Shown here one piece after another: positions 7,666-20,135 of a DNA stretch of 64,000 nucleotides. Every line of letters starts with the position of its first letter. Position 1 is the first letter of the stretch. Both the position numbers and the translations under genes were made by a program. The stretch comes from an uncultured Petrimonas sp. (GTDB lineage Bacteria > Bacteroidota > Bacteroidia > Bacteroidales > Dysgonomonadaceae): assembly GCA_964557135.1 (NCBI GenBank), contig CAZKZB010000008.1, forward strand, positions 14,779-78,778, in the 5' to 3' direction. The notes under the pieces were generated by a model. The model was given only the letters and a program-made list of their open reading frames with translations, did no database searches and was not told the DNA's origin.

Positions 7666-9195
7666 CTACTTTATTTCATCGGGCCATGGACATACTTTTC
7701 CCGTTACTTTGAACGTCGGACGCTGTGCTTTTACTTTCCGCAAATAGTTGCTTAACTCTTTCGAAAGTATTTTCACCAACTGCTGATTCGAGGACGCTAA
7801 ATCCCGCGTCTCGCCAATATCGCTTGCAATATTGAAGAGCTCTCGCTTACCCGTTTCATAATAATATACCAATTTCCAGTCGCCATTGCGAATAGCGCTG
7901 GCTGTTCCGATTCCCGGCCCGTTGTTTCCCCAGAGATTGGGAAAATGCCATATCAAACTGCGGTTTTTATAGCTTGAACGACCTTCTAAAAGCATCGGCA
8001 CAAAACTTTTGCCGTCAATCGGCTGTTTGGTCTTGTAATTTTTCACTTGCGCCATTTCAAGCAGCGAAGGAAAATGGTCTTCGATTATCGTGTAAGCATC
8101 ACAGCGAGATCCCGCCTTTACTTTTCCTGTCCATTTAACAATCATCGGTTCACGAATTCCGCCTTCGTACATCGAACCTTTACCACTGTTGAGCGGCGCA
8201 TTATGCGTGTGAAGCGGTAAGTCGCGCCATCCCGAATCAGACGATAAACCGCCGTTGTCGCCCATAAAAACGATGATGGTGTTTTCATCAAGCTCGTTTT
8301 CTTTAAGCCAATCCATCAGGTCTCCCAGACTCTTATCCATTCCTTCAATCAGCGAGGCATATCCGGCTTCTTTTTCCGATAATCCCGCATCCCTGTATTT
8401 TTGATAAAACCGCATATCCTTATCCACCGGAATGTGAACGGCATAATGCGACATATAAAGGAAAAACGGTTGATTGAGTCGCTTGGCTTTATCGAGTGCT
8501 TTTACGGCTTCCAGCGTAAGTGCTTCGGTAGCGAAAGTGTCGGTTCCCCAATAATCTTTTAGTCCCGGTACGGCTTGCAGCGGATTTGGTTTTCCATCGG
8601 TTCGATTACCATAATTCTGTTCTCCAAGATAACTGGCAATACCGCCGCCAGCGTGTCCGGCAATATTTACCTCAAAACCAAAATGATACGGATTTTCTCC
8701 CGGCGTATCGATAGCTCCCCAGTGCGCTTTACCGCAATGAATGGTATGATAACCGCTGTCTTTAAGAAGTTGCGCCAGTGAAGTAACCTCGTAAGTAGCA
8801 GGCACATTGGGAATTTGACAAATGCCGTTTACATTCCATTCGGGGAAGTGCAACACATGGCTCTTCTCGTCAGTCGACCTGTTTTTTTGCAACGTCCAGT
8901 TGGTCACCCGATGGCGAGCAGCATTCATTCCCGTCATTAAACTCACGCGTGTGGGCGAACTAACAGGACAGGCATACGCCTGAGTAAACATCATTCCTTC
9001 CGCAGCCAGCCGCTCCATATTGGGAGTGTGATATCTTTCGTTCAGTGGCGTTTTCTCTTTCCAAAACGGAAGCGAAGTATCCTGCCAACCCATATCGTCC
9101 ACAAGAAAATAGATGATATTGGGACGCGTGTCGGTGGTTTGCGCCGAAATGGCTAACGGGGAAAGCAAAAATGGAATGATGTGAACTTTTTTCAT
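7666..9195 (-). CDS. Sulfatase (arylsulfatase family), Ser at the formylglycine position
   Basis: 509-aa ORF with a signal peptide and the metal-binding start FLVDDMGWQD. The sulfatase signature reads S-S-P-T-R followed by VSLMTG (nt 8947-8961). The C-terminal sulfatase fold carries GDNGG. Confidence 0.85.
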   Translation of the reverse strand: MKKVHIIPFLLSPLAISAQTTDTRPNIIYFLVDDMGWQDTSLPFWKEKTPLNERYHTPNMERLAAEGMMFTQAYACPVSSPTRVSLMTGMNAARHRVTNWTLQKNRSTDEKSHVLHFPEWNVNGICQIPNVPATYEVTSLAQLLKDSGYHTIHCGKAHWGAIDTPGENPYHFGFEVNIAGHAGGGIASYLGEQNYGNRTDGKPNPLQAVPGLKDYWGTDTFATEALTLEAVKALDKAKRLNQPFFLYMSHYAVHIPVDKDMRFYQKYRDAGLSEKEAGYASLIEGMDKSLGDLMDWLKENELDENTIIVFMGDNGGLSSDSGWRDLPLHTHNAPLNSGKGSMYEGGIREPMIVKWTGKVKAGSRCDAYTIIEDHFPSLLEMAQVKNYKTKQPIDGKSFVPMLLEGRSSYKNRSLIWHFPNLWGNNGPGIGTASAIRNGDWKLVYYYETGKRELFNIASDIGETRDLASSNQQLVKILSKELSNYLRKVKAQRPTFKVTGKVCPWPDEIK

Positions 9196-9311
9196 TTGCT
9201 TAGCTGATTCTTAAAGCGTCTAAAAACATCGGTGTTGAACGATAATAAAAATGCAGAATGACAGATAACAATCTTTTCAAAAAATCAAATTTCCGCCTAC
9301 TGTAACATTGT

Positions 9312-10055
9312 TCAATTTGATTTGTTCTCGTTCCAATAGTAACTGTCCGGATAAATTCTTGCGCCGAAAACAGCCGTTCCCACCCGCACAATGGTTGAGC
9401 CTTCCTCGATGGCTGTTTCTAAATCCCCGCTCATTCCCATCGATAGTTCGTTCATCTGCACGTTCGGAATTTCCCGACGAACGACCTCTTGCTGTATCTC
9501 TTTCAACAGTTTAAAGCATTTTCTCACCTTCTCGGTTTCGGCACTGAACAAGCCGATGGTCATCAATCCTTTGATGTGGATATTTTTAAACATGGAAACT
9601 TGCTCAATGAGTTCGATGGCATTTTGGGGACTGACTCCAAATTTACTTTCTTCGGCGGAAGTATTTACCTGGATAAGAACATCTATCTCTTTTTTCTCAA
9701 AAGTGAGTCTGTTTTGCAATTTTTCCGCCAAACTTAACCGGTCGACAGACTGAATACAGGATACGCCGTACTTGAGGATATCCTTTATTTTATTGGTTTG
9801 CAGGTGTCCGATAAAATGTTTTTGGTGGGGATAGATTGCCAAATCGTTGAATTTCGAAAGAATTTCCTGTACCTTATTTTCGCCAATGAGTGTTTGTCCC
9901 GCATCAAAAGCCGATTTTATTCGGTCGGCAGAGACCGTTTTGGTTGCCAGCAGCAACTTCACGTCGCGGGGATTTCTGCGGCAACTTTCGCAGGTCCTTT
10001 CAATCCGCCGGAGTATGTCGGCAATGTTGCTTGCTATGTCGTTCTTGTTGTCCAT
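9312..10055 (-). CDS. yggS: YggS-family pyridoxal-phosphate homeostasis protein
   Basis: Alanine-racemase N-terminal-like fold with the PLP-lysine context LLLATKTVSADRI and HFIGHLQTNK. Start moved to ATG 10055, because the longer ORF to 10175 would overlap the upstream hydro-lyase gene. Confidence 0.8.
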   Translation of the reverse strand: MDNKNDIASNIADILRRIERTCESCRRNPRDVKLLLATKTVSADRIKSAFDAGQTLIGENKVQEILSKFNDLAIYPHQKHFIGHLQTNKIKDILKYGVSCIQSVDRLSLAEKLQNRLTFEKKEIDVLIQVNTSAEESKFGVSPQNAIELIEQVSMFKNIHIKGLMTIGLFSAETEKVRKCFKLLKEIQQEVVRREIPNVQMNELSMGMSGDLETAIEEGSTIVRVGTAVFGARIYPDSYYWNENKSN

Positions 10056-10092
10056 CGGCAGAAAAGGCTCTTCAAAATCATCGTTATTACCG

Positions 10093-10710
10093 CTACTTTT
10101 TGCCGTACTCTTCTCTTCCCATTGTGTACATATCGTTACCTTCGCAATCCACGGCAACCACCACGGGAAGTTCATTAACGGTCAGTTTCCTGATGGCTTC
10201 GGTTCCCAACTCTTCAAAAGCGATTATCTCGGCACTCTCCACGCACTTTGCCATCAACGCGGCAGCTCCGCCAATGGCGGCAAAATAAACGCCGGTATGC
10301 TCTTTCATGGCGTTAATAACCTCGGCGCTGCGGGTTCCTTTACCAATCATCACTTTCAATCCTTTCGTGATGAGCGTGGGGGAATAAGCATCCATGCGTC
10401 CGCCGGTGGTAGGTCCTACCGAACCGATGGGTCTGCCCGGTTTTGCCGGCGCCGGACCGGCATAATAAACTGCCTGCCCTTCGAAATCGAAAGGCATGGG
10501 TTCGCCGCGCTCAATCATCTCGCACAGGCGTTTGTGCGCCGCGTCGCGAGCGGTATAAACCGTTCCCGAAATATAAACCATATCGCCCGCTTTGAGTGTG
10601 CGGATGGTTTCGTCGGTAAACGGAGCTTGCAATATTCTTTTAACCCCTATATCCCCTGAAGGGGACTTTGTCGGCTGTGAATTATCTGTGTTTGTGTTTT
10701 TGTGTTGCAT
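10093..10710 (-). CDS. Fe-S hydro-lyase beta subunit (class I fumarase / tartrate dehydratase C-terminal type); candidate mesaconase small subunit
   Basis: 205-aa ORF with LKAGDMVYISGTVYTARDAAHKRL and GPTTGGRMD, typical of the FumA C-terminal/TtdB family. The first ~26 codons are a repeat-derived leader, so the true start may be TTG 10632. Confidence 0.8.
   Translation of the reverse strand: MQHKNTNTDNSQPTKSPSGDIGVKRILQAPFTDETIRTLKAGDMVYISGTVYTARDAAHKRLCEMIERGEPMPFDFEGQAVYYAGPAPAKPGRPIGSVGPTTGGRMDAYSPTLITKGLKVMIGKGTRSAEVINAMKEHTGVYFAAIGGAAALMAKCVESAEIIAFEELGTEAIRKLTVNELPVVVAVDCEGNDMYTMGREEYGKK
10642..10674 (+). repeat. Palindromic repeat copy 1 (AACCCCTATATCCCCTGAAGGGGACTTTGTCGG)
   Basis: Contains the hairpin TCCCC-TGAA-GGGGA. 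It is near-identical to the copies at 14615 and (inverted) 15234. Confidence 0.85.
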
Positions 10711-10733
10711 GATTTTTTGTTTTGTTTATGAAC

Positions 10734-10810
10734 GCGTCAGGCGGGTAATCCGCCGGACGCAGCGCCACATGCGTCTTTGCGGAATTTATATGAGACGCAT
10801 GCAATGCGTC
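10734..10810. repeat. Cluster of alternating GCGTC/GACGC words forming mutually exclusive hairpins
   Basis: Hairpins are GCGTC-a-GGCGG-gtaat-CCGCC-g-GACGC, CATGCGTCT-N16-AGACGCATG and GACGCAT-gca-ATGCGTC. They lie in the spacer between the hydro-lyase alpha and beta genes. Confidence 0.65.
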
Positions 10811-10817
10811 TCTACAA

Positions 10818-11660
10818 TTACAGGCTGCCTTCTGCGTGTCTTGTCGCGTGGCAGCCGATATTTACCGATACAGGCAATCCCGCGATATGCGTAGCGTTAG
10901 TGAAAACATGTACCGCCAGTGCCGTAGTTGTTCCGCCAAAACCGGCCGGGCCTATTCCCAGCTTGTTTATTTCAGCAAGCAGTTCAGCCTCTAAGTCAAC
11001 GAGTAACGGATTTTCGTTTATCGACCCCACTTCACGCAACAGCGCCTTTTTACTCAAATAAGCGGCGCGTTCCATGGTTCCGCCAATGCCCACACCCACA
11101 ATGATGGGCGGACATGGATTGCCGCCCGCCGCAGAAATGGTGTCGAGCACAAAACGTTTTACGCCTTCAACGCCTTCGCTGGGCGTAAGCATTTTGAGCG
11201 CACTTTTGTTTTCGCTGCCAAAACCTTTGGGCGAAACGGTAATGTGAAAGTCATCACCTGACGTGAGTTCGTAATGAATTACGGCAGGGGTATTGTCTCC
11301 GGTATTCACCCGATCCAACGGATCGCGAACAACCGATTTGCGCAAATATCCTTCCTTATATCCCCGGCGAACCCCTTCGTTGATGGCATCTTCTATAAAT
11401 CCGCCTTCAATTTGTACGTTCTGCCCCATTCGAACAAAAACAACGGTCATGCCCGTGTCTTGACACATCGGGCTGCGTTCTTCGCGGGCAATTCGCGCGT
11501 TTTCGATAAGCGTACCCAGAATCTGCTTGCCCAACGGCGATTTTTCGGTCTGCAACGCGCTTTTAAATTTATTGTTAATATCGTCGGTAATCACGCAGCA
11601 GGCTTCAATGCAAAGACGCTCTACCAGCGCAGTTATATCCGCAGTTTTAATTGTCTTCAT
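10818..11660 (-). CDS. Fe-S hydro-lyase alpha subunit (class I fumarase / tartrate dehydratase N-terminal type); candidate mesaconase large subunit
   Basis: 280-aa ORF with [11 protein letters not shown] and GVGIGGT motifs of the Fe-S hydro-lyase catalytic domain. Its start overlaps the upstream P-loop gene by 14 nt. Confidence 0.85.
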
Positions 11661-12609
11661 TTATACATTTTCGGGTTAAGAAATAACGGGTATTTCTATT
11701 TTCTAAATCATCTGAATCACCTGAATAACTATCCACCAATCCAATCAAGCAATAGGTATTGGTTACCGGGTCATGAACAAATCGTTTTACAAGCGAAAAG
11801 TTTTTGATTTCCGAAGTGTTATTCACATGAAAACGCGAACCATCGCATGTCATAACTTCATCGCCAAGTTTAATATGGTCTTCATCGTAATACGATATAT
11901 CCAGATTTTGTGCAATTTTCTCATCGATTAGTTTGGCAAGATGCTCTAAATCCATTTCCGGTTTTTTGTAAAACTTTATTACAAACCCGTTTCTGATATC
12001 GGAAAAGTAATATTCTTCGTGTTTGATGTCGAATACTTCGTGAAGAATGGATGTGGCAACCTCTTCGGCCGAGTGCGCCATTTTCCGAAATCTAAGCGAC
12101 TCATGTACAATCTGATAAACACTTTCAGGATGCGGTCCGAATATACTGGGGCGCACCACGATGATTTCCTCGCCAATGCCTACGATGATATCCGCATTAC
12201 GTCCCAACATGGGGTAGAGCAGATTGAAATGCTCAATGACCACACGCCGATTGCGCTCCAAGAGAGAGTTAACGTAATCCACAATTTCATACATCTGTGT
12301 GAACGCCATCTGGAAGCGGATATCGATATGAAACGTTGTGGCATCGTCGACTTCGGTGAGCGAATGGCGCACCTGCATTATTTTGCGTGGGTTCACAATA
12401 TCATCGTCGTTGGAGAGTTGCAACCCCGGAAACATGCCCTTGATGAGCGATGATTTTCCGGCTCCCGCATCGCCTACAATACCGATAAGCCTGTCCGAAA
12501 AATTGATGTGCCGATGCGAAATTTGCTCGCCGAGAAACATCAGCCGCTCTTTGCCGCGCGGGGCAAAGTATTGCGACGAAACCATGTATTCCTGTATGAA
12601 ATTACGCAT
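11647..12609 (-). CDS. P-loop NTPase of unknown function
   Basis: 320-aa ORF with a Walker A-like GIVGDAGAGKSSLIKG. I recognise no other family. It is translationally coupled (14-nt overlap) to the hydro-lyase alpha gene. Confidence 0.55.
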   Translation of the reverse strand: MRNFIQEYMVSSQYFAPRGKERLMFLGEQISHRHINFSDRLIGIVGDAGAGKSSLIKGMFPGLQLSNDDDIVNPRKIMQVRHSLTEVDDATTFHIDIRFQMAFTQMYEIVDYVNSLLERNRRVVIEHFNLLYPMLGRNADIIVGIGEEIIVVRPSIFGPHPESVYQIVHESLRFRKMAHSAEEVATSILHEVFDIKHEEYYFSDIRNGFVIKFYKKPEMDLEHLAKLIDEKIAQNLDISYYDEDHIKLGDEVMTCDGSRFHVNNTSEIKNFSLVKRFVHDPVTNTYCLIGLVDSYSGDSDDLENRNTRYFLTRKCINEDN

Positions 12610-12769
12610 AAGAATTTACGATTTACGATTTTAGAATTCGGATCCGCCGGCGGGCGGACAAGTTTTTGGATTTTACCGCTAAATCCACTGATATAAACTT
12701 TGTTGAGATAGAGCTATGCCGATAGACTAACTATGTGATCAGCAAGCTATTACTGCTCGTGATAACATT

Positions 12770-12837
12770 TATCGCACGAAGTACATATCACGCGAAGCGT
12801 CTATCGCAACGAAGTTGCTTATCGCGCTTAGCGCTTA
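12770..12837. repeat. Four tandem 16-18-nt units starting TATC(G/A)C...
   Basis: The units are TATCGCACGAAGTACA, TATCACGCGAAGCGTC, TATCGCAACGAAGTTGCT and TATCGCGCTTAGCGCT. The array abuts the DUF4387-like stop codon. Confidence 0.7.
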
Positions 12838-13152
12838 TAATTCAAACGTCAACCCCATCAACGGTGCGTGTTGTTGTGCGCCGTACACATCGGTTTCGCC
12901 CAACGCTCCCGAAGGAATGGGACGCACAATGGTGGTTTTTATCGCCTTTGCCGGGTCGAAATGCACCACGCCGATAATATCGGATTCGGGAATATTATAC
13001 AGCGAGGCGAACATTTTTTCGTTGAATATTTTTGCCGCTTTCACTTTTTCATATATCTCGAAATCCTTGAAAATTACGTCAAATGTCAGTTCGTAAGGAC
13101 CTGAATTTTTGCTTCGTATTACCGATGCAATGTCTGTTAGATTGTATTTCAT
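12835..13152 (-). CDS. DUF4387-like small protein
   Basis: 105-aa ORF. The N-terminal IRSKNSGPYELTFDVIF pattern and its pairing with an upstream DUF1446-like gene match the DUF1446/DUF4387 pair as I remember it. Confidence 0.55.
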   Translation of the reverse strand: MKYNLTDIASVIRSKNSGPYELTFDVIFKDFEIYEKVKAAKIFNEKMFASLYNIPESDIIGVVHFDPAKAIKTTIVRPIPSGALGETDVYGAQQHAPLMGLTFEL

Positions 13153-13167
13153 AACTTTATTATTGTT

Positions 13168-13251
13168 ATTCGGTTGTAATTCAGTTGATATTCAATTGTA
13201 TTGTTGAACTGTTCAACGCCACGACTAATATCCGTTGAATTACAACCGAAT
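13168..13251. repeat. 16-bp perfect inverted repeat (ATTCGGTTGTAATTCA / TGAATTACAACCGAAT) enclosing a second palindrome GTTGAAC-T-GTTCAAC
   Basis: Read directly. It fills most of the 106-nt spacer between the DUF1446-like and DUF4387-like genes. Confidence 0.8.
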
Positions 13252-13258
13252 TACGTTC

Positions 13259-14683
13259 TTAATTAAATTCAATATACTCAATCGGAAACAATTCTACGGG
13301 ATTGTCCACTTTCATCAAATGATACACGTTGAACTCAAACACTTCGCCCATCTTGGCATCGCTCGGCGAGAACGGAAACGCCAGGTTGCCGGCGGTGGCA
13401 ATGCGTCCTTCGTAACCGAAGTGCAGCATGGTGCTGCGGGCAAATCCGCAAATGGTGTTGGCTTGCTCCTGCGTATCGGCAACGGCTTCGATGATGATAA
13501 GCAGCTCGTCGCCATGTGATTCCTGCGCGCCGTCGAACATCGCCATTACGCCGTTTTTACCGTAGATTTTAAAATCGAGGAAAAAGTCTTTGATACCGTA
13601 ATTCTCGAAATTGTTTTTCACGCGGTCTTTTACGCTTTCGGTAATGCTGTCGATTTTCGAAATCATAATCGGGTCTTTCACGCCTGCGCACGAAATGGTG
13701 CGGTATCCCACTTTGCGAACACCTTCCAGCTTCACAAAATAATCGTCGGTAGGAACAAATTTTGTTCCCGATACTTTCACTTTGTTGTCATCTATTTGCG
13801 TAAACGTGCAGTTGTGCAGGTCGAGTACTCCTCCCGGTCCGGGCAGGATGTAGGGATTGGTTTTTTCATACAGCGTGTGCGCGGCAACCGACAGTGTGGT
13901 GCATTTGCGCAGCGGCGAAAGCGGTTCGAGAATGAAACCGTCTTCTTGCAAGTAGCCGAACATGCTGTCGCTACCGCTTCCGGGCAACGCGGCAATGGCG
14001 GCGCATTCCAAAATTTTCCCCATGTGAAGGGCAAGCGCTTTGTCGAAACCGTTTTTGATGGCGAGCGCCGCGAAAACCGACGGGTCGTAAGAGCGTCCGG
14101 CAAGAATTACCTGCGCGCCCTCTTCCAGCGCTTTTATGTAGGGTTCTTCGCCAATTTGCGCCACAATGTGTACCGATTCGTCCACATCTTTTTCCGAAAT
14201 CTCTTTCGCGGGAAACAGCGGTGTTACGTTGCCGTCGCGCAATTTCGATTTCACAAGCTCTTTATCGAGTTCCGATTGAATGACCGCCATCTTAAACGAC
14301 AGTTTGTTTTCACTCGCAATTTCTTTCACAATATCCAGCGTGAGCGCCACATGCGGACGCGCGCCGCTTCCGCCTGCCGTGCCGATGATAACCGGAATTC
14401 CGGCTTCCAAAGCGGCGGGAATCATAATTTCGAGGTCGCGTTTTACCGAGTTTCTATCGGTAAACGATACGCCGGAGCCCAAATAATAGGGTCCGGGGTC
14501 GGTTGAACCGGCATCAACCGCGATAACGTGCGGCTTTCTTTTCATCCCTTCAACAAACGATTCCATCGGAAATCCGTATCCGAGAATGGCAGTTGGGGAA
14601 AGTACTCTTAGTTCGACCCCTAAATCCCCTGAAGGGGACTTTGTGGGTTCTAAATTATTTATGTTTAGTTCGTTCTCTTTCAT
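13259..14683 (-). CDS. DUF1446 / AtuA-like protein of unknown function
   Basis: 474-aa ORF. LRVLSPTAILGYGFP...VIAVDAGSTDPGPYYLGSG resembles the acyclic terpene utilisation AtuA (DUF1446) family. The first ~24 codons are the repeat-derived leader module. Confidence 0.6.
   Translation of the reverse strand: MKENELNINNLEPTKSPSGDLGVELRVLSPTAILGYGFPMESFVEGMKRKPHVIAVDAGSTDPGPYYLGSGVSFTDRNSVKRDLEIMIPAALEAGIPVIIGTAGGSGARPHVALTLDIVKEIASENKLSFKMAVIQSELDKELVKSKLRDGNVTPLFPAKEISEKDVDESVHIVAQIGEEPYIKALEEGAQVILAGRSYDPSVFAALAIKNGFDKALALHMGKILECAAIAALPGSGSDSMFGYLQEDGFILEPLSPLRKCTTLSVAAHTLYEKTNPYILPGPGGVLDLHNCTFTQIDDNKVKVSGTKFVPTDDYFVKLEGVRKVGYRTISCAGVKDPIMISKIDSITESVKDRVKNNFENYGIKDFFLDFKIYGKNGVMAMFDGAQESHGDELLIIIEAVADTQEQANTICGFARSTMLHFGYEGRIATAGNLAFPFSPSDAKMGEVFEFNVYHLMKVDNPVELFPIEYIEFN
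14615..14647 (+). repeat. Palindromic repeat copy 2 (GACCCCTAAATCCCCTGAAGGGGACTTTGTGGG)
   Basis: Direct sequence comparison with the copies at 10642 and 15234. Confidence 0.85.
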
Positions 14684-14722
14684 ATTTTTCTTCTATTATT
14701 ATATGATTTTCTTAATAAACCA

Positions 14723-14732
14723 CTGTTCCCAA
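14723..14732. repeat. 10-bp direct repeat CTGTTCCCAA (right partner at 15234-15243)
   Basis: An exact 10-mer occurs 7 nt beyond the DUF559 stop and again 38 nt before its ORF start. Confidence 0.8.
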
Positions 14733-14739
14733 AATTCTT

Positions 14740-15195
14740 TCAGGGCGTTGGGAGCGGAGCGCGTATTCTACTTTTTACCTCTTCCGTTATTTCTTCAATA
14801 ACTTTTTCCGTATCCGAGAATACACGTTCATTTGTAAATCGCAATACTTTTAAACCAAACTTTTCCAAGTCGGAATCCCTATTTGAGTCGTACTCATATT
14901 GTTCCGGAACTTTATGGTATCCGCCATCCACTTCTATTATTAATTTTGCTTGATGACAATAAAAGTCTGCCACAAAATAAAAGATGGGATGTTGCCGTTT
15001 AAACCGAACATTTAATATCTTATTTCCTCTGAGATAATTCCACAAATGACTTTCCGCTTCTGTTTGATTATTCCTTAACTTCTTTGCAAATTCAAATAAA
15101 ATAGGAATCGCACCGTAAAACATATTGGTTCCCCCTAAATCTACACGAGACTTTGCGCGGGTTGAACTGTTTATGTTAGGCGCATTATCTATCAT
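14740..15195 (-). CDS. DUF559 endonuclease-domain protein (Vsr/restriction-endonuclease-like fold)
   Basis: 151-aa ORF. AESHLWNYLRG...FKRQHPIFYFVADFYCHQAKLIIEVDGGYH...RDSDLEKFGLKVLRF is the typical DUF559 core. An alternative start is ATG 15123. Confidence 0.75.
   Translation of the reverse strand: MIDNAPNINSSTRAKSRVDLGGTNMFYGAIPILFEFAKKLRNNQTEAESHLWNYLRGNKILNVRFKRQHPIFYFVADFYCHQAKLIIEVDGGYHKVPEQYEYDSNRDSDLEKFGLKVLRFTNERVFSDTEKVIEEITEEVKSRIRAPLPTP
15129..15163 (+). repeat. Degenerate fourth copy of the palindromic repeat (hairpin lost)
   Basis: It shares CCCCTAAATC, ACTTTG and GGGTT in the same order with copy 2. It lies in the 5' extension of the DUF559 ORF. Confidence 0.5.
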
Positions 15196-15233
15196 ATTTC
15201 TTTTGTTGCTTACGACTTCATCCTAATTAGCCG

Positions 15234-15268
15234 CTGTTCCCAAGTCCCCTTTAGGGGATTTAGGGGTT
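15234..15268 (-). repeat. Palindromic repeat copy 3, inverted orientation (AACCCCTAAATCCCCTAAAGGGGACTTGGGAACAG on the minus strand)
   Basis: It is the reverse complement of copies 1 and 2. It supplies the last two codons and the TAA stop of mal, and its outer end is the 10-bp direct repeat. Confidence 0.85.
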
Positions 15269-16498
15269 TATAGCCAATATCCTGCTCATTTCGTTATACA
15301 CAATCATATACCCTTCGTCAACGCCCATGCCGGGTTTGGCGAGATACTGAACGGGAGAAGTTGCCATGGCTATGTGCGCACAAACTTCGGCAGAGCGATT
15401 GGTTTCGTTGCAGGTTCCGCCCAGATAGGCGCCCATGTCGTGCTGTTGGCAATAAAGAACCGCTTCGATGCTGTTATTGATTCCGCCCAAATCGGGAGTT
15501 TTAATTTGTGCCATGTGTCCGGCTTTGTGTTCCGAAAAGTCGATAACATCTTGCAGCGTGTTACACCATTCGTCGGCAACAATTTCGGAGGTAATGCCTT
15601 TCTCTTCCATCTTTTGGCGGATGGTGCGAAGCGCTTCAATTTGAGCCGTTTTTTCGCCCATGTCCACCGGACCTTCCACGCGCAGGTGGAACGGTTTTGC
15701 CACTTCGGCAAGTTCGCCGATATAGGTGGCGATGGCTTCGAAATTGTCGTTGAAAACAATGCCGAGCGTTCCGTACACGTCGATGTGGATGGTGGGTTTA
15801 TACGCCTCAAACGGTTTCAGTTTGATGATGCGGTCGCGCAGCCATGCTAAGTACTCTTTTATTTTTTCACCTTTCAGTCCCACTTTGGTTTCCACGTGGT
15901 TGAAGAGCGCATGCGGAAGCACATCGGCGCCTTTCATAATCATTTTGTCGGCGTTGAGGTAGCGGTCGTCGCCCGATTGCGAGAAAATGGGGATGATGCG
16001 GTCGGAAACCGTTGTCCCGTATTCTTCGGCAATTACTTGCGCCATCAGTTTACCTTGGCTTTTGGCAACAGCATCGAGACACGCTTGCGTAACTCCGTAG
16101 CGAATGGCGGTGTGGTAGATTTTCCCGGTCTCGGGATTAACGCCCTTGTCAACAAGATCGGCCATTTCGCGGAAAGTTGTTATTTCGCGTCCTACATATA
16201 ATGGAGCGATATGCTTTTCAATTATCGGGATGAAGTTTTCTGCTAAAAACAAAGGGTCACGTCCACCCGCACCCGAGTATTGAACGGCAGCGCAATCGCC
16301 GTGCGCAAACGCGCCGTTTTCGAGAACGAAAATAACCGAAATGGATTCTCCAGCCTGTCTAACGGCGGTGAAACCGGGTGTTACGGGATCTCCTTCGTAA
16401 AATGCGCCATCGTTTTTGGCGTCTTGTTTAATGGCTTTTTGATCGTCGAAGTAAAAGCCGGTTTTTCCTGCTGAGCAGATGATTTTTGTAATTTTCAT
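15260..16498 (-). CDS. mal: 3-methylaspartate ammonia-lyase
   Basis: 412-aa ORF. The N-terminus MKITKIICSAGKTGFYFDDQKAIK and the enolase-superfamily core match methylaspartase. The stop codon lies inside a palindromic repeat. Confidence 0.9.
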   Translation of the reverse strand: MKITKIICSAGKTGFYFDDQKAIKQDAKNDGAFYEGDPVTPGFTAVRQAGESISVIFVLENGAFAHGDCAAVQYSGAGGRDPLFLAENFIPIIEKHIAPLYVGREITTFREMADLVDKGVNPETGKIYHTAIRYGVTQACLDAVAKSQGKLMAQVIAEEYGTTVSDRIIPIFSQSGDDRYLNADKMIMKGADVLPHALFNHVETKVGLKGEKIKEYLAWLRDRIIKLKPFEAYKPTIHIDVYGTLGIVFNDNFEAIATYIGELAEVAKPFHLRVEGPVDMGEKTAQIEALRTIRQKMEEKGITSEIVADEWCNTLQDVIDFSEHKAGHMAQIKTPDLGGINNSIEAVLYCQQHDMGAYLGGTCNETNRSAEVCAHIAMATSPVQYLAKPGMGVDEGYMIVYNEMSRILAINP

Positions 16499-16614: not shown

Positions 16615-18066
16615 TTATTTGGGTCTTCCTACCAATACTCCTTTACCAATGGCATAAACGTCATCGATAACCATTTGGAAGCTCACGGTGCGTTTTTCGA
16701 ATTTGGCGCGCTCTTCCAATTTTTGGCGGTGGAAATCAATCAGGTCTTTTGTAAACGGCATATTACCGATTTCAAGGAAGCGAACTGCACCTGCGTTGTC
16801 GCGGGCAGGCAATACTTTTCCGGCATTGTATCGGCTTGGCGCAAAAGGAATATCGATCACGCCTGCTTCGAAAGCGGCAACCGTACCAACAGCGTAATCG
16901 CCTTTACCCAACTCTTCCACTTTATCCAAAATGCAGCGCATCTCTTTCATGATGATTTCGCTTTCGGCAATCACGGCGGGAATTGTTCTGAAATCCTGGT
17001 CTTTCAACATGGAAACGACCTGCTTTGTGGCACGCAATCCGGCGGCGTTTGCCTCTTTGGTGGGAACACCCATGGCTTCGTGCGGCGTTTTCACAATTAC
17101 TTTGGTGGCTTTTGCCAAAACTGCAGCGGCAGCACCCCAAGAGATTACACCAAACGCTTTGGCTTCGTCCTGCGGGAATCCGCCCATCCATTGGTGGAAG
17201 ACGGTGGTAACGCGTACATCGTTGAACCCGAATTTATCCAAATATTCGCGGGTGAGGAGGTCGAGCGCGCGAATGGCGGCAACGTCCTGAATAAGGTTTC
17301 CGCACTGTCCGTATCCTACCGTGAGGTCTTTTACACCTTGCGTAGCCGCCAAAATCGATTCGATAACGGCAACGGAGTTAGAAATACACGGCTCGATGAG
17401 TGTTCCGGTAAGCGGCCCAAACGGCTCGCGATTGATGGAAACACCCGCTTCTTCGTACATGCCCACCAAGCGGTCAGCGTATTGCCAGTGCGCGATGGTT
17501 TTTTCGATGGAGTGCGCTTTGGAATAGGGAATGTTGTAAGAAATTCCGCCGCCTTCGTACGAGGTAAAACCTCCGGCAATGGAAAGTTCGGTAAGCAAGC
17601 GCGCATCGGGCGTACCGTGGCGTACTTGAACCGGATTTTTAAGCGCCGATGTTACCTGACGGCAGATATTTACACCGTAATTCACGATTGGGAAACCGTT
17701 CAACATGGAGCGTCCGGTTTCTTTACTTTTTGCAATGCCGGTTTCGGCTTCATTGTAGCGATTTAGGCGCGTGTAGCTGTCAACTGTTGTGGGAAGCAAA
17801 TCGGCTTCGCCTTCGTTTTCGAGGAATTGCAACAGTTTTATGTGTTCGTCGTAGAGCGCTACGCCTGCACGGGGTTGAATAAGCGTAACTCCTTCGGCAA
17901 CAGCGTTAGATAGCTTTACGCCAAAACGCTTTTCGTTGGGGATCGATTTTTGATAGGCAACGGCTTCGTCGAAATCTACATCTTTTCCGGTGTGCCAATG
18001 CCCCAGAACTTCCTTACGCTCTGCAAAAAAAGCGTCGTTGGAAAGTTTTTTGTTTTTAATTTCCAT
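16615..18066 (-). CDS. glmE: Glutamate mutase (methylaspartate mutase) epsilon/E subunit
   Basis: 483-aa [22 protein letters not shown] and the TIM-barrel core are characteristic of MutE/GlmE. Confidence 0.9.
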
Positions 18067-18174: not shown

Positions 18175-19557
18175 TCACACAGCCGCGATTTCCCTTTTCA
18201 GTATGGTAAGAGCCAAATCGGGATAAACGGAACTGAGTAATCCCATCGACGCGAAAATATATTTCTTGTCAATCAGATAATCGGGATTTTTGGGTTTGGC
18301 GAATTTAAACTCGTTGGGCATCAACTTGGCGCCTTCCAATATGTATCGGGGTTGCGCGCTGTTGATGATGGCGCCGCCAATGCCGATAACGTACGGAACA
18401 GCCGTTAGGTCTTTCCCTTCGAGTGTAAACATCTGACCAAAAGGTGTGTAAACGGACTGATAGACTCCGCTGTGGCGCTCGATAGCAATTTTTACCGCTC
18501 CGTGCGCCAACGCTTCTTCTATTTTCTGCTCTGCCGAATTGGTTTGTGCCAGCGTGTCGGGCTTGTTGCAACAGGCTTGTACCCAATTGGTCAGCGTCGA
18601 TTCCGGTACGCCCAACTCTTCGGAAATGGCAGACAAATCCAACTCATCGGCAAGTGCCGACAGGCTGTATCGCATGCCCAAATCTCCTTCCACCGTTCGT
18701 TTGCTTTGCGGCTCGGGCAATCCTTTGATGGTTACGTTTTCGAGGGTGGGTAATCCCTTCGAAATGGAGTACACATCGGTGGTTGCGCCACCAATATCCA
18801 CTGCCAGTAAATCGCCCAAACCCGATACGTTTTTTGTGCCTTTGCTCAACAGTTCGCAAGCATTTAGCACCGCCAGCGGCGTGGGAATTACATCGGTTTT
18901 GCACATTGCCTGAATACGGCTTAAACCTTTGGCTTCGATGATTCGGCTGATGAAGAGGTTAGTGATGTTTTTCTTTGCCGGCTCAATGTTGAGTTTGTTG
19001 AATTCGGGCATTACGTTGTCGGTTATGACAAACGATTTGCCAGACGCTGCGAAAATGGTTTCCAAATCAAACGACGCGCTTTTGTTTCCCGCCGCGATGA
19101 TGGTAAAGGGACGGTCTATTTCGCACAGCCGACACGCGTTGGCAAGAATTACGTCTTTGTTTCCGCCGTCGGTTCCGCCGCAAAGCAGCACCAAGTCAGG
19201 GTTTATTTCGTAAATCTCGTCTTGCTCGGCTCTCGAAATTTCAAAAGCGTAGGTTTTCACCACTTTTGCTCCGGCACTGGCTGCGGCAAGTCGGGCAGCT
19301 TTGGCGGTGAGATCGGGGACAAGCCCGAGCGCCGTCATTTTTAGTCCGCCTGCGGCGCTGCTGCAACAAAGCAGTTCGTCGTAAGGGAATTTTCCGATAG
19401 ATTGCTCCAACTTTTGATAGGCAGACCGAAACCCCTCCATCACATCTGTTTCGATGGTGGTAAATGATGCCGAAGTGCCCACTATTTTCTGCTCAATGGT
19501 GTCAATAGCGGTCAATTTGGTGTATGTGCTGCCAATATCTGCTGTAAGGAGATTCAT
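18175..19557 (-). CDS. glmL: Glutamate mutase accessory/reactivating protein L
   Basis: 460-aa ORF with the ASKHA-type N-terminus LLTADIGSTYTKL and a second phosphate motif AVDIGGATTDV. It sits between the S and E subunits, as in clostridial operons. Confidence 0.8.
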   Translation of the reverse strand: MNLLTADIGSTYTKLTAIDTIEQKIVGTSASFTTIETDVMEGFRSAYQKLEQSIGKFPYDELLCCSSAAGGLKMTALGLVPDLTAKAARLAAASAGAKVVKTYAFEISRAEQDEIYEINPDLVLLCGGTDGGNKDVILANACRLCEIDRPFTIIAAGNKSASFDLETIFAASGKSFVITDNVMPEFNKLNIEPAKKNITNLFISRIIEAKGLSRIQAMCKTDVIPTPLAVLNACELLSKGTKNVSGLGDLLAVDIGGATTDVYSISKGLPTLENVTIKGLPEPQSKRTVEGDLGMRYSLSALADELDLSAISEELGVPESTLTNWVQACCNKPDTLAQTNSAEQKIEEALAHGAVKIAIERHSGVYQSVYTPFGQMFTLEGKDLTAVPYVIGIGGAIINSAQPRYILEGAKLMPNEFKFAKPKNPDYLIDKKYIFASMGLLSSVYPDLALTILKREIAAV

Positions 19558-19709: not shown

Positions 19710-20135
19710 TTATACGTTAAGCAGTTCTTTCAAGTCGTCGATACACGTTTCTACAGGAGTTCCGGGAGGATAGGCGCGGGTGAAGCCCATGTCTAAAAAT
19801 CGTTTTTCAACCTCTTTGAAGTCTTGTTTTCCAACAACCAGGTTTCCGCCGGCAAGCAAGGGAATGTCTTTCAATCCGGCTTCGTTGCACTTTTCGCGCA
19901 AACCGTTGCAGTCTATTTCGCCGTGTCCGTAGAGCGAAGATACCAAAATGGCATCGGCATTGGTTTCGATGGCTGCCGAGATGTACTCTTCCTGAGAAAC
20001 CATAACTCCGAGATTAACAACCTTGAAACCGGCGTCTTCCAAAGCAAAAGCGAGAATTTTGTTTCCCACGGCGTGCACATCGGCGCCAATAACGCCTGTA
20101 ATAATAGTTTTTCCGTTCATAATATGTATTATCAT
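19710..20135 (-). CDS. glmS: Glutamate mutase sigma/S subunit (B12-binding)
   Basis: 141-aa ORF with the cobalamin-binding DxHxxG motif ([10 protein letters not shown]). The likely true start is ATG 20120 ([10 protein letters not shown]). Confidence 0.9.

Follow-up and report, generated by a model that had tools for sequence, protein, structure and literature searches.

A single long operon on the minus strand carries the genes of the methylaspartate pathway in the stretch of DNA analysed here (the window: 64,000 nucleotides of contig CAZKZB010000008.1, assembly GCA_964557135.1, from an uncultured Petrimonas sp., Bacteroidota). Two of its genes encode proteins of the DUF1446 (AtuA) and DUF4387 families, which by sequence are orthologues of the citramalate lyase CmlAB, and the next gene encodes a 320-residue protein designated X. 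Very probably, the observations as a whole are best explained by an operon that is completed by the CmlAB lyase and in which X is a separate accessory. Genes were named by Pfam and NCBIfam profile searches of the window proteins. Judged by these assignments the operon encodes the methylaspartate pathway in full, with enzymatic activities that we infer for the source organism. Its genes, in the order of transcription, are the following.

19710-20135, minus strand: glmS, methylaspartate (glutamate) mutase subunit S, B12-binding (NCBIfam NF002612, E=2.4e-63; Pfam B12-binding)
18175-19557, minus strand: glmL, methylaspartate mutase accessory protein, ASKHA-type (NCBIfam NF040745, E=2.6e-183; Pfam MutL)
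16615-18066, minus strand: glmE, methylaspartate mutase subunit E (TIGR01503, E=3.6e-231)
15260-16498, minus strand: mal, 3-methylaspartate ammonia-lyase (TIGR01502, E=2.2e-170)
13259-14683, minus strand: cmlA, citramalate lyase large subunit by orthology, AtuA/DUF1446, 474 residues (Pfam AtuA/PF07287, E=4.2e-26; PDB 9erq_A)
12835-13152, minus strand: cmlB, citramalate lyase small subunit by orthology, DUF4387, 105 residues (Pfam DUF4387/PF14330, E=2.9e-41; PDB 9erq_B)
11647-12609, minus strand: X, 320 residues, two predicted domains, no family above threshold (AlphaFold2, Foldseek, conserved synteny)
10818-11660, minus strand: mesA, iron-sulfur (Fe-S) hydro-lyase alpha subunit, candidate mesaconase (Pfam Fumerase, E=1.6e-117; NF004885)
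10093-10710, minus strand: mesB, Fe-S hydro-lyase beta subunit (Pfam Fumerase_C, E=7.5e-63; NF005310)

The DUF1446/DUF4387 pair as the probable citramalate lyase

In the proposed pathway GlmSE, aided by GlmL, would convert glutamate to (2S,3S)-3-methylaspartate, from which Mal would release ammonia to yield mesaconate, and MesAB would hydrate mesaconate to (S)-citramalate. Cleavage of (S)-citramalate to pyruvate and acetate would fall to CmlAB, which would act without an acyl carrier and stand in for the clostridial CitDEF-type lyase.

In a PDB sequence search, the 474-residue protein matched 9erq_A/9evf, deposited as 'Citramalate lyase, subunit A (cmlA)' (E=6.9e-154), with its residues 25-464 aligned to residues 5-441 of 9erq_A. 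The 105-residue protein matched 9erq_B, 'Citramalate lyase, subunit B (cmlB)' (E=1.4e-28 over residues 1-104). Each of the two proteins had one strong PDB match. The Raoultella planticola CmlAB system (9ERQ/9EVF) resembles the window pair in having two subunits (about 450 and 105 residues), in similarity over the full length and in the order mal-cmlA-cmlB inside a glmSLE-mal-mesaconase cluster. Unlike the Raoultella proteins, to which they are about 55-58% identical, the window proteins belong to Bacteroidales and not to Enterobacteriaceae, CmlA has a predicted, repeat-derived N-terminal extension of 22 residues, and the X gene follows. Raoultella planticola Cml (cmlAB), a gift from the Berg laboratory, splits citramalate directly to pyruvate and acetate; in an E. 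coli acetyl-CoA auxotroph it sustains Cml-dependent growth on mesaconate, with isotope label reaching acetyl-CoA (preprint 10.64898/2026.01.16.699985). A search of the available literature returned no primary description of the CmlAB enzyme. Because the pair matches the CmlA and CmlB structures and Raoultella cmlAB has the activity described in the preprint, the citramalate-cleaving step appears to be filled by a known enzyme type; this part of the operon is not novel.

An initial reading of the window, made from the sequence only, had recognised the DUF1446(AtuA)/DUF4387 pair, in agreement with the Pfam matches (E=4.2e-26 and 2.9e-41), and had suggested, as one of two alternatives, that the pair together with X supplies a fate for mesaconate or citramalate. 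That suggestion holds for the pair, as CmlAB, and not for X as part of the unit. The other alternative, that the genes mature or repair the Fe-S or the B12 enzyme, may apply to X only. The same reading saw no assignable function in any of the three proteins, which fails for the two that match CmlA and CmlB, and it took the function of AtuA-type proteins to be unknown, a view that is out of date for the CmlA subfamily.

The genomic setting points in the same direction. The pair sits amid genes for glutamate mutase, methylaspartate ammonia-lyase and mesaconase, and the order mal-cmlA-cmlB recurs in E. coli, in 56 of the 69 genome loci in which X was called and in most of 80 metagenome loci. The annotated order in E. 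coli SMS-3-5 is glmS, glmL, glmE, mal, AtuA-family, DUF4387, transporter, class I fumarase and cobO, and the window proteins are 55% (AtuA-family) and 48% (DUF4387) identical to their orthologues there. Megablast of the cmlA, cmlB and X genes against E. coli genomes gave no match, so an enterobacterial origin of the window was rejected. A DUF1446 gene downstream of mal was noted in Enterobacteriaceae and Dictyoglomus by Kronen and Berg (2015, PMC4682846), for whom it was unclear what becomes of citramalate in E. coli O157:H7, the citrate, isocitrate and methylisocitrate lyases being devoid of citramalate lyase activity. The enterobacterial glutamate-fermentation cluster (E. coli O157:H7/SMS-3-5) shares with the window the series glmS-glmL-glmE-mal-AtuA-DUF4387, followed by class I fumarase/mesaconase. 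However, FumD of E. coli is a single chain, and the cluster there includes a transporter, cobO and a LysR regulator but not X; in the window MesAB has two subunits, and X, a DUF559 cassette and a YggS-family gene are present. The clostridial citramalate lyase (CitDEF-type, with CitCXG activation) carries out the same step from (S)-citramalate to pyruvate and acetate, but it is an unrelated complex, reliant on an acyl carrier protein, and has none of its domains in the window operon. In the operon genes and the scanned flanks no domain of CitD (acyl carrier), CitE (HpcH/HpaI), CitF (CoA-transferase) or CitC/X/G was detected.

Could the pair act on another substrate, for example mesaconate or methylaspartate? 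The AtuA family PF07287 is heterogeneous, the Pfam match of the 474-residue protein is partial (residues 80-230), and weighing against our assignment is that an orthologue at about 55-58% identity has its activity here deduced from sequence. Yet the similarity to the solved CmlA extends over the full length, the position in the operon is identical to that in the enterobacterial clusters that supplied the enzyme, and the operon offers no other enzyme for the last step. We consider a non-lyase function very improbable; the pair is orthologous to CmlAB, and from this orthology we infer citramalate lyase activity in the source organism.

X as a component separate from the lyase

The reading mentioned above had drawn attention to a GDAGAGKS P-loop in X and to an overlap of 14 nucleotides between X and the start of the hydro-lyase alpha gene, and both were confirmed: the P-loop comprises residues 46-53 (12451-12474), and the X stop and the mesA ATG overlap by exactly 14 nucleotides, ATGAAGACAATTAA. 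It had also treated the three genes as one functional trio, which the distribution of X does not support. We analysed a cmlA-centred sample of metagenome contigs, independent of the genome scan for X described below, in which 38 loci had at least 3 kb on both sides of the gene. X was present in 24 of these and absent from 14; in three loci (L087, L148 and L155) mesAB follows cmlB directly and X is missing. No X was found in the E. coli clusters, and no family consistently occupies the X position in clusters that lack it. Directly upstream of glmS in E. coli SMS-3-5 (L075, 4968-6415) lie genes for hypothetical proteins of 314 and 140 residues with no Pfam or NCBIfam match; the 314-residue protein was considered as an X homologue and rejected, being unrelated to X.

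The spacing between neighbouring genes, taken over all loci, was as follows.

cmlB-X: median gap 46 nucleotides, overlapping in 3 of 81
X-mesA: median gap 0 nucleotides, overlapping in 33 of 74, at most 10 nucleotides in 60 of 74
cmlA-cmlB: median gap 15 nucleotides, overlapping in 29 of 124
mesA-mesB: median gap 15 nucleotides, overlapping in 24 of 71
glmS-glmL: median gap 4 nucleotides, overlapping in 14 of 81

With a median gap of 0 and 33 overlaps, X-mesA is therefore the tightest junction of the operon, tighter than those of true subunit pairs. Canonical mesA occurs in 20 of the 24 X-positive but in 4 of the 14 X-negative cmlA loci (Fisher p=0.0014), while the presence of glmL is not associated with that of X (p=0.65), neither comparison being corrected for phylogeny. 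All 24 X-positive loci contain glmE.

These data bear on the possibility of a three-component system, in which the AtuA/DUF4387 enzyme would require X, either as an ATP-dependent activator or as its third subunit. X does lie directly after cmlB in most loci, and the classical lyases for citrate and citramalate have to be activated by CitC at the expense of ATP. Against this, the solved CmlAB entries hold chains A and B only, Raoultella cmlAB alone gives citramalate cleavage in E. coli, X is missing from the E. coli cmlAB clusters and from 14 of 38 cmlA loci, it persists in clusters that have no cmlAB, and the cmlB-X junction is loose. A three-component enzyme is thus largely refuted and hardly credible. 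X is very probably a separate accessory that is dispensable for CmlAB and not a third lyase subunit.

X belongs to a compact family of methylaspartate clusters

Protein X has no Pfam, NCBIfam or PDB sequence match above threshold. A search of a 5.8-billion-protein collection (E<=1e-3) returned 939 homologues, and none of the 120 listed carries a precomputed Pfam domain; at the 50% identity level 245 cluster representatives match X, mostly fragments. X is 81-85% identical to its counterparts in Proteiniphilum, Paludibacter and Petrimonas metagenome-assembled genomes (MAGs), and identical copies are present on contigs of four public runs. Some homologues are named 'alanine-tRNA synthetase second additional domain-containing protein' by NCBI. 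X cannot be placed by sequence methods alone, since a profile of the X family run against PDB sequences gave only Walker-A matches to ABC transporters. Apparent fusions of the 'Rosetta stone' type that involve X (P0267, P0257 and P0162) look chimeric or frameshifted and were set aside as uninformative. The family is compact and isolated and is without a curated model.

A scan of one genome per species, with synteny assessed by tblastn using the window operon proteins, yielded 74 X loci. In Bacteroidota they belong to Bacteroidales (Proteiniphilum, Petrimonas, Fermentimonas, Paludibacter, Muribaculaceae, Rikenellaceae and Alistipes) and to Solitalea, and elsewhere to Desulfovibrionaceae, Adiutrix-type deltaproteobacteria, Treponema and several clostridial orders. 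The conserved order across the loci is glmS-glmL-glmE-mal-cmlA-cmlB-X-mesA-mesB. Co-occurrence of X with methylaspartate genes, proposed as a check at the outset, was found: pathway genes adjoin X in 62 of the 66 genome loci that have flanks of 2 kb or more, in Bacteroidota, Desulfobacterota, Bacillota and Spirochaetota. In an all-against-all clustering of the open reading frames (ORFs) around X, only eight pathway families recur besides X itself, the next family reaching 7 loci; no TsaB/TsaD-like family recurs in these neighbourhoods.

Several loci depart from this arrangement. In the Desulfovibrionaceae MAGs L056 (10968-11558) and L066 (11053-11592) the order is glmS-glmL-glmE-(mal)-X-CobA adenosyltransferase, neither cmlAB nor mesAB lies in the vicinity, and in L066 there is no mal within 10 kb; this reduced module suggests that glutamate mutase and methylaspartate are put to a different use there. 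Oscillospiraceae and deltaproteobacterial loci have glm/mal-X only. In two Eubacteriales MAGs (L063 and L065, about 9000-13200) the order is GntR-X-mesA-mesB-Asp/Glu racemase, with no glm or mal within 10 kb. In three Dysgonomonadaceae-type MAGs (L026, L033 and L043, about 10001-10948) a homologue 65-70% identical to X lies between rodA and pyrG, a cell-shape and housekeeping region with no pathway gene nearby on the contig.

Predicted structure and conserved residues of X

An AlphaFold2 model of the whole of X (predicted local distance difference test score, pLDDT, 81; predicted template-modelling score, pTM, 0.77) comprises two domains.

12139-12609, minus strand: predicted N-terminal domain of X, residues 1-157, TsaE/YjeE-like ATPase (Foldseek; sub-threshold Pfam TsaE)
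11650-12138, minus strand: predicted C-terminal domain of X, residues 158-320, AlaX/tRNA_SAD-like editing fold (model and Foldseek)

When compared with the PDB by Foldseek, the N-terminal half matched TsaE/YjeE (1htw_A, E=3e-5, target template-modelling (TM) score 0.60; 6n9a_E; range E=3e-5 to 5e-4) and the C-terminal half matched AlaX-M (9iuw, E=8.5e-6; 2e1b). A separate model of residues 158-320 (pLDDT 85.9, pTM 0.81) had AlaX, AlaRS and ThrRS editing domains as all of its top 16 matches (TM 0.5-0.61, root-mean-square deviation 3.3-4.1 Å), followed by mitoribosomal mL39 and then nothing significant. At the profile level both relationships lie beneath the Pfam cut-offs. For TsaE (PF02367) X scores 16.5 bits against 26.6, with sub-threshold matches in 31 of 32 family members (best E=1.9e-4), and for tRNA_SAD (PF07973) 14.8 bits against 24, with such matches in 24 of 32 members (best E=1.1e-3). 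These predictions suggest that X joins a P-loop ATPase resembling TsaE to an aminoacyl-tRNA editing fold of the AlaX type.

Conservation was scored over 104 full-length homologues of 42-85% identity. Invariant are G46, G49, G51, K52 and S53 of the Walker A motif, N67, D69, H94, D96, R98, E126 and H127 elsewhere in the N-terminal domain, and R175, H179, E182, C255 and R259 in the C-terminal domain; residue 183 is an Asp or a Glu throughout, and 97 of the 104 sequences retain H261. Because the Walker A residues and those of the His/Glu/Cys/His motif are invariant or, for H261, nearly so, both the ATPase site and the metal or active site of X appear to be under selection. H94, D96 and R98 fall in the motif FHIDIRF (residues 93-99), the counterpart of which in TsaE is YHxDxYR. 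X residues 1-157 thus resemble TsaE/YjeE, the ATPase of t6A biosynthesis, in fold, in the Walker A sequence GDxGAGK[ST] and in the motif H-x-D-x-[YR]-[RF]. Unlike TsaE, X stays below the Pfam threshold, has a fused second domain, lacks TsaB/TsaD neighbours and is encoded in a catabolic operon.

The tRNA_SAD family is characterised by HxxxH, which binds zinc together with CxxxH, and by C-G-G-T-H-V-x-x-T-G-E-I. Both signatures are paralleled in the C-terminal domain of X, by M-A-H-S-A-E-E and C-D-G-x-R-F-H-V-x-N-T-S-E-I. The core of the first in the window is H179-S-A-E182-E183 (12061-12075), that of the second C255-D-G-S-R259-F-H261 (11827-11847), and the family patterns are H179-x-x-E182-[ED]183 and C255-x-G-x-R259-x-H261. 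Residues of ligand type are kept, but spacing and identity differ from HxxxH/CxxxH: an acidic residue stands in place of the second His, and the invariant Arg lies within an insertion of two residues. The family is also acidic (median isoelectric point, pI, 5.65; C-terminal domain 5.3). Compared with the AlaX-family deacylases, BesG and AlfB included (PMC13149037), X residues 158-320 have the same fold with remnants of both signature motifs, and the gene cluster around X likewise deals with a non-canonical amino acid. X differs from them in the Glu/Asp at the second His position and in the Arg-bearing insertion of the Cys...His motif, in its acidity and its N-terminal ATPase domain, in scoring below the Pfam tRNA_SAD threshold and in belonging to a catabolic rather than a biosynthetic pathway.

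Possible functions of X

Our leading guess, a tentative one, is that X is a hydrolytic proofreading factor against the non-canonical amino acid 3-methylaspartate. It might deacylate, for example, 3-methylaspartyl-tRNA, and the invariant arginines beside the metal motif might read the acidic side chain. The only structural relatives that Foldseek found for the C-terminal domain are aminoacyl-tRNA editing domains, apart from the mL39 match noted above, and AlaX-family deacylases are known to mark gene clusters that handle non-canonical amino acids (PMC13149037). Glutamate mutase, the maker of methylaspartate, is the most constant partner of X, since the minimal modules of Desulfovibrionaceae consist of glmSLE(+mal), X and cobA. 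The dispensability of X is as would be expected of a protective factor.

Several points weigh against proofreading. The acidic pI, mildly unfavourable, does not suggest RNA binding, H-x-x-E-[DE] and C-x-G-x-R-x-H take the place of the canonical zinc motif, and the sequence matches to TsaE and tRNA_SAD are below the Pfam thresholds. To our knowledge, none of the described trans-editing factors makes use of an ATPase domain. No literature was found on an aminoacyl-tRNA synthetase that activates 3-methylaspartate. The genomic context is also unfavourable in part: the tightest junction is X-mesA (median gap 0, 33 of 74 overlapping), X tracks mesAB (20/24 against 4/14, p=0.0014), which points to the hydratase step, and some loci have the order GntR-X-mesA-mesB-racemase with no glm within 10 kb. 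That X is the first trans-editing-type factor dedicated to catabolism, an ATP-coupled AlaX-fold hydrolase freeing 3-methylaspartate from mis-acylated tRNA or another mis-activated ester, is a rather doubtful proposition. If so, it would shield translation while millimolar fluxes of a non-canonical amino acid run through the methylaspartate pathway. A TsaE-like ATPase that maintains a B12 mutase or an Fe-S hydro-lyase would be equally undescribed.

The close tie to mesA raises the alternative that X supports the Fe-S mesaconase MesAB, as an ATP-driven maturation, repair or switching factor or as a complex partner of MesA. Its His/Glu/Cys/His site would then hold a metal, e.g. Fe2+, for the oxygen-labile [4Fe-4S] hydro-lyase. 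In favour are the X-mesA junction, with 60 of 74 at no more than 10 nucleotides where subunit pairs have a median of 15, the association of X with mesA in the cmlA-centred loci, the split sub-operons GntR-X-mesA-mesB-racemase and the invariance of the candidate metal ligands. However, the X loci of Desulfovibrionaceae, Oscillospiraceae and deltaproteobacteria have no mesAB nearby, and L087, L148 and L155 have mesAB right after cmlB and no X. Moreover, neither the TsaE nor the AlaX fold has a known link to Fe-S assembly, X has a single invariant cysteine, and the association with mesA is uncorrected for phylogeny. We regard a role in mesaconase support as unlikely.

TsaE docks on the ASKHA heterodimer TsaB-TsaD. 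By analogy, X might dock on GlmL and aid the re-activation of glutamate mutase or the handling of damaged adenosylcobalamin. The N-terminal domain of X is TsaE-like in predicted fold and motifs and GlmL has an ASKHA fold; consistent with such a partnership are the minimal modules glmS-glmL-glmE-(mal)-X-cobA and two rearranged clusters (L070 and L153) in which X stays beside glmL. Yet X and glmL are not associated (p=0.65), L146 has X and no glmL in its cluster, and the glutamate mutases of E. coli and clostridia work with GlmL alone. This explanation would also leave the AlaX-like domain unaccounted for, and X has no similarity to MeaB/G3E chaperones. Support of the B12 enzyme is improbable on this evidence. 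X had no Pfam or NCBIfam match to B12 chaperones or adenosyltransferases (MeaB/G3E, CobA, PduO, EutT). A role as a replacement cobalamin adenosyltransferase, suggested by the E. coli cluster with cobO and no X, was rejected because X and CobA stand side by side in the Desulfovibrionaceae loci L056 and L066.

The DUF559 cassette and other features of the operon

Three ORFs had been counted between mal and the mesaconase in the initial reading; all three exist, and a fourth, of 151 codons, had been overlooked. This gene and the one that follows mesB are listed here.

14740-15195, minus strand: DUF559 endonuclease-like gene, 151 residues (Pfam DUF559, E=2e-35)
9312-10055, minus strand: YggS-family protein that binds pyridoxal phosphate (PLP) (TIGR00044, E=1.3e-58)

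The DUF559 gene lies in a cassette of 657 nucleotides between mal and cmlA (14616-15267). Its ends are 26-nucleotide inverted repeats (14616-14641 and 15242-15267) that are 96% complementary, ACCCCTAAATCCCCTGAAGGGGACTT. The near-identical strain contig L157 has no cassette, which makes it a recent, polymorphic insertion; cmlA there starts with MKELRVLSPT and encodes 452 residues. In the window the cassette has removed the native cmlA start, and a new ATG 22 codons upstream would add 22 residues. This extension, at the 5' end of the gene (14611-14683), includes PTKSPSGDLGV, the translation of a repeat arm, in frame. A third, palindromic copy of the repeat (25 nucleotides, 10644-10668) is found within mesB, in the 5' part of its ORF (10644-10710), where it would be translated in frame as PTKSPSGDIGV. 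The DUF559 cassette is a passenger and not a pathway gene. In L031, another MAG, a DUF559 gene occupies the same position as the cassette gene of the window.

The YggS-family gene is directly 3' of mesB. Its product has 247 residues on sister contigs, and the ORF 9312-10175 is probably over-extended. A YggS gene follows mesB in few related loci (L002, L003, L006, L016 and L081) and not generally. Its product is probably not a pathway enzyme. A promoter and terminator scan gave counts no better than in shuffled sequence, Bacteroidota promoters being outside the coverage of the scan.

Implications for the methylaspartate pathway

Which enzyme cleaves citramalate in organisms without CitDEF is a puzzle already answered by the CmlAB lyase. 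To this the window contributes an orthologue from Bacteroidales, and the pathway in its CmlAB version proves to be widespread among bacteria of anaerobic digesters, the gut and the termite gut. The new part is X, a strongly conserved family found almost only in methylaspartate clusters of four phyla, which, on the predicted structure, unites two folds known elsewhere from tRNA biology. If X proofreads mis-acylation with methylaspartate, the principle of the deacylase as a marker of clusters for non-canonical amino acids would reach from biosynthesis to fermentation. If X instead services the B12 or the Fe-S enzyme, it would represent a new type of enzyme-maintenance ATPase, and would be relevant to the transplantation of the pathway or of CmlAB into production strains.

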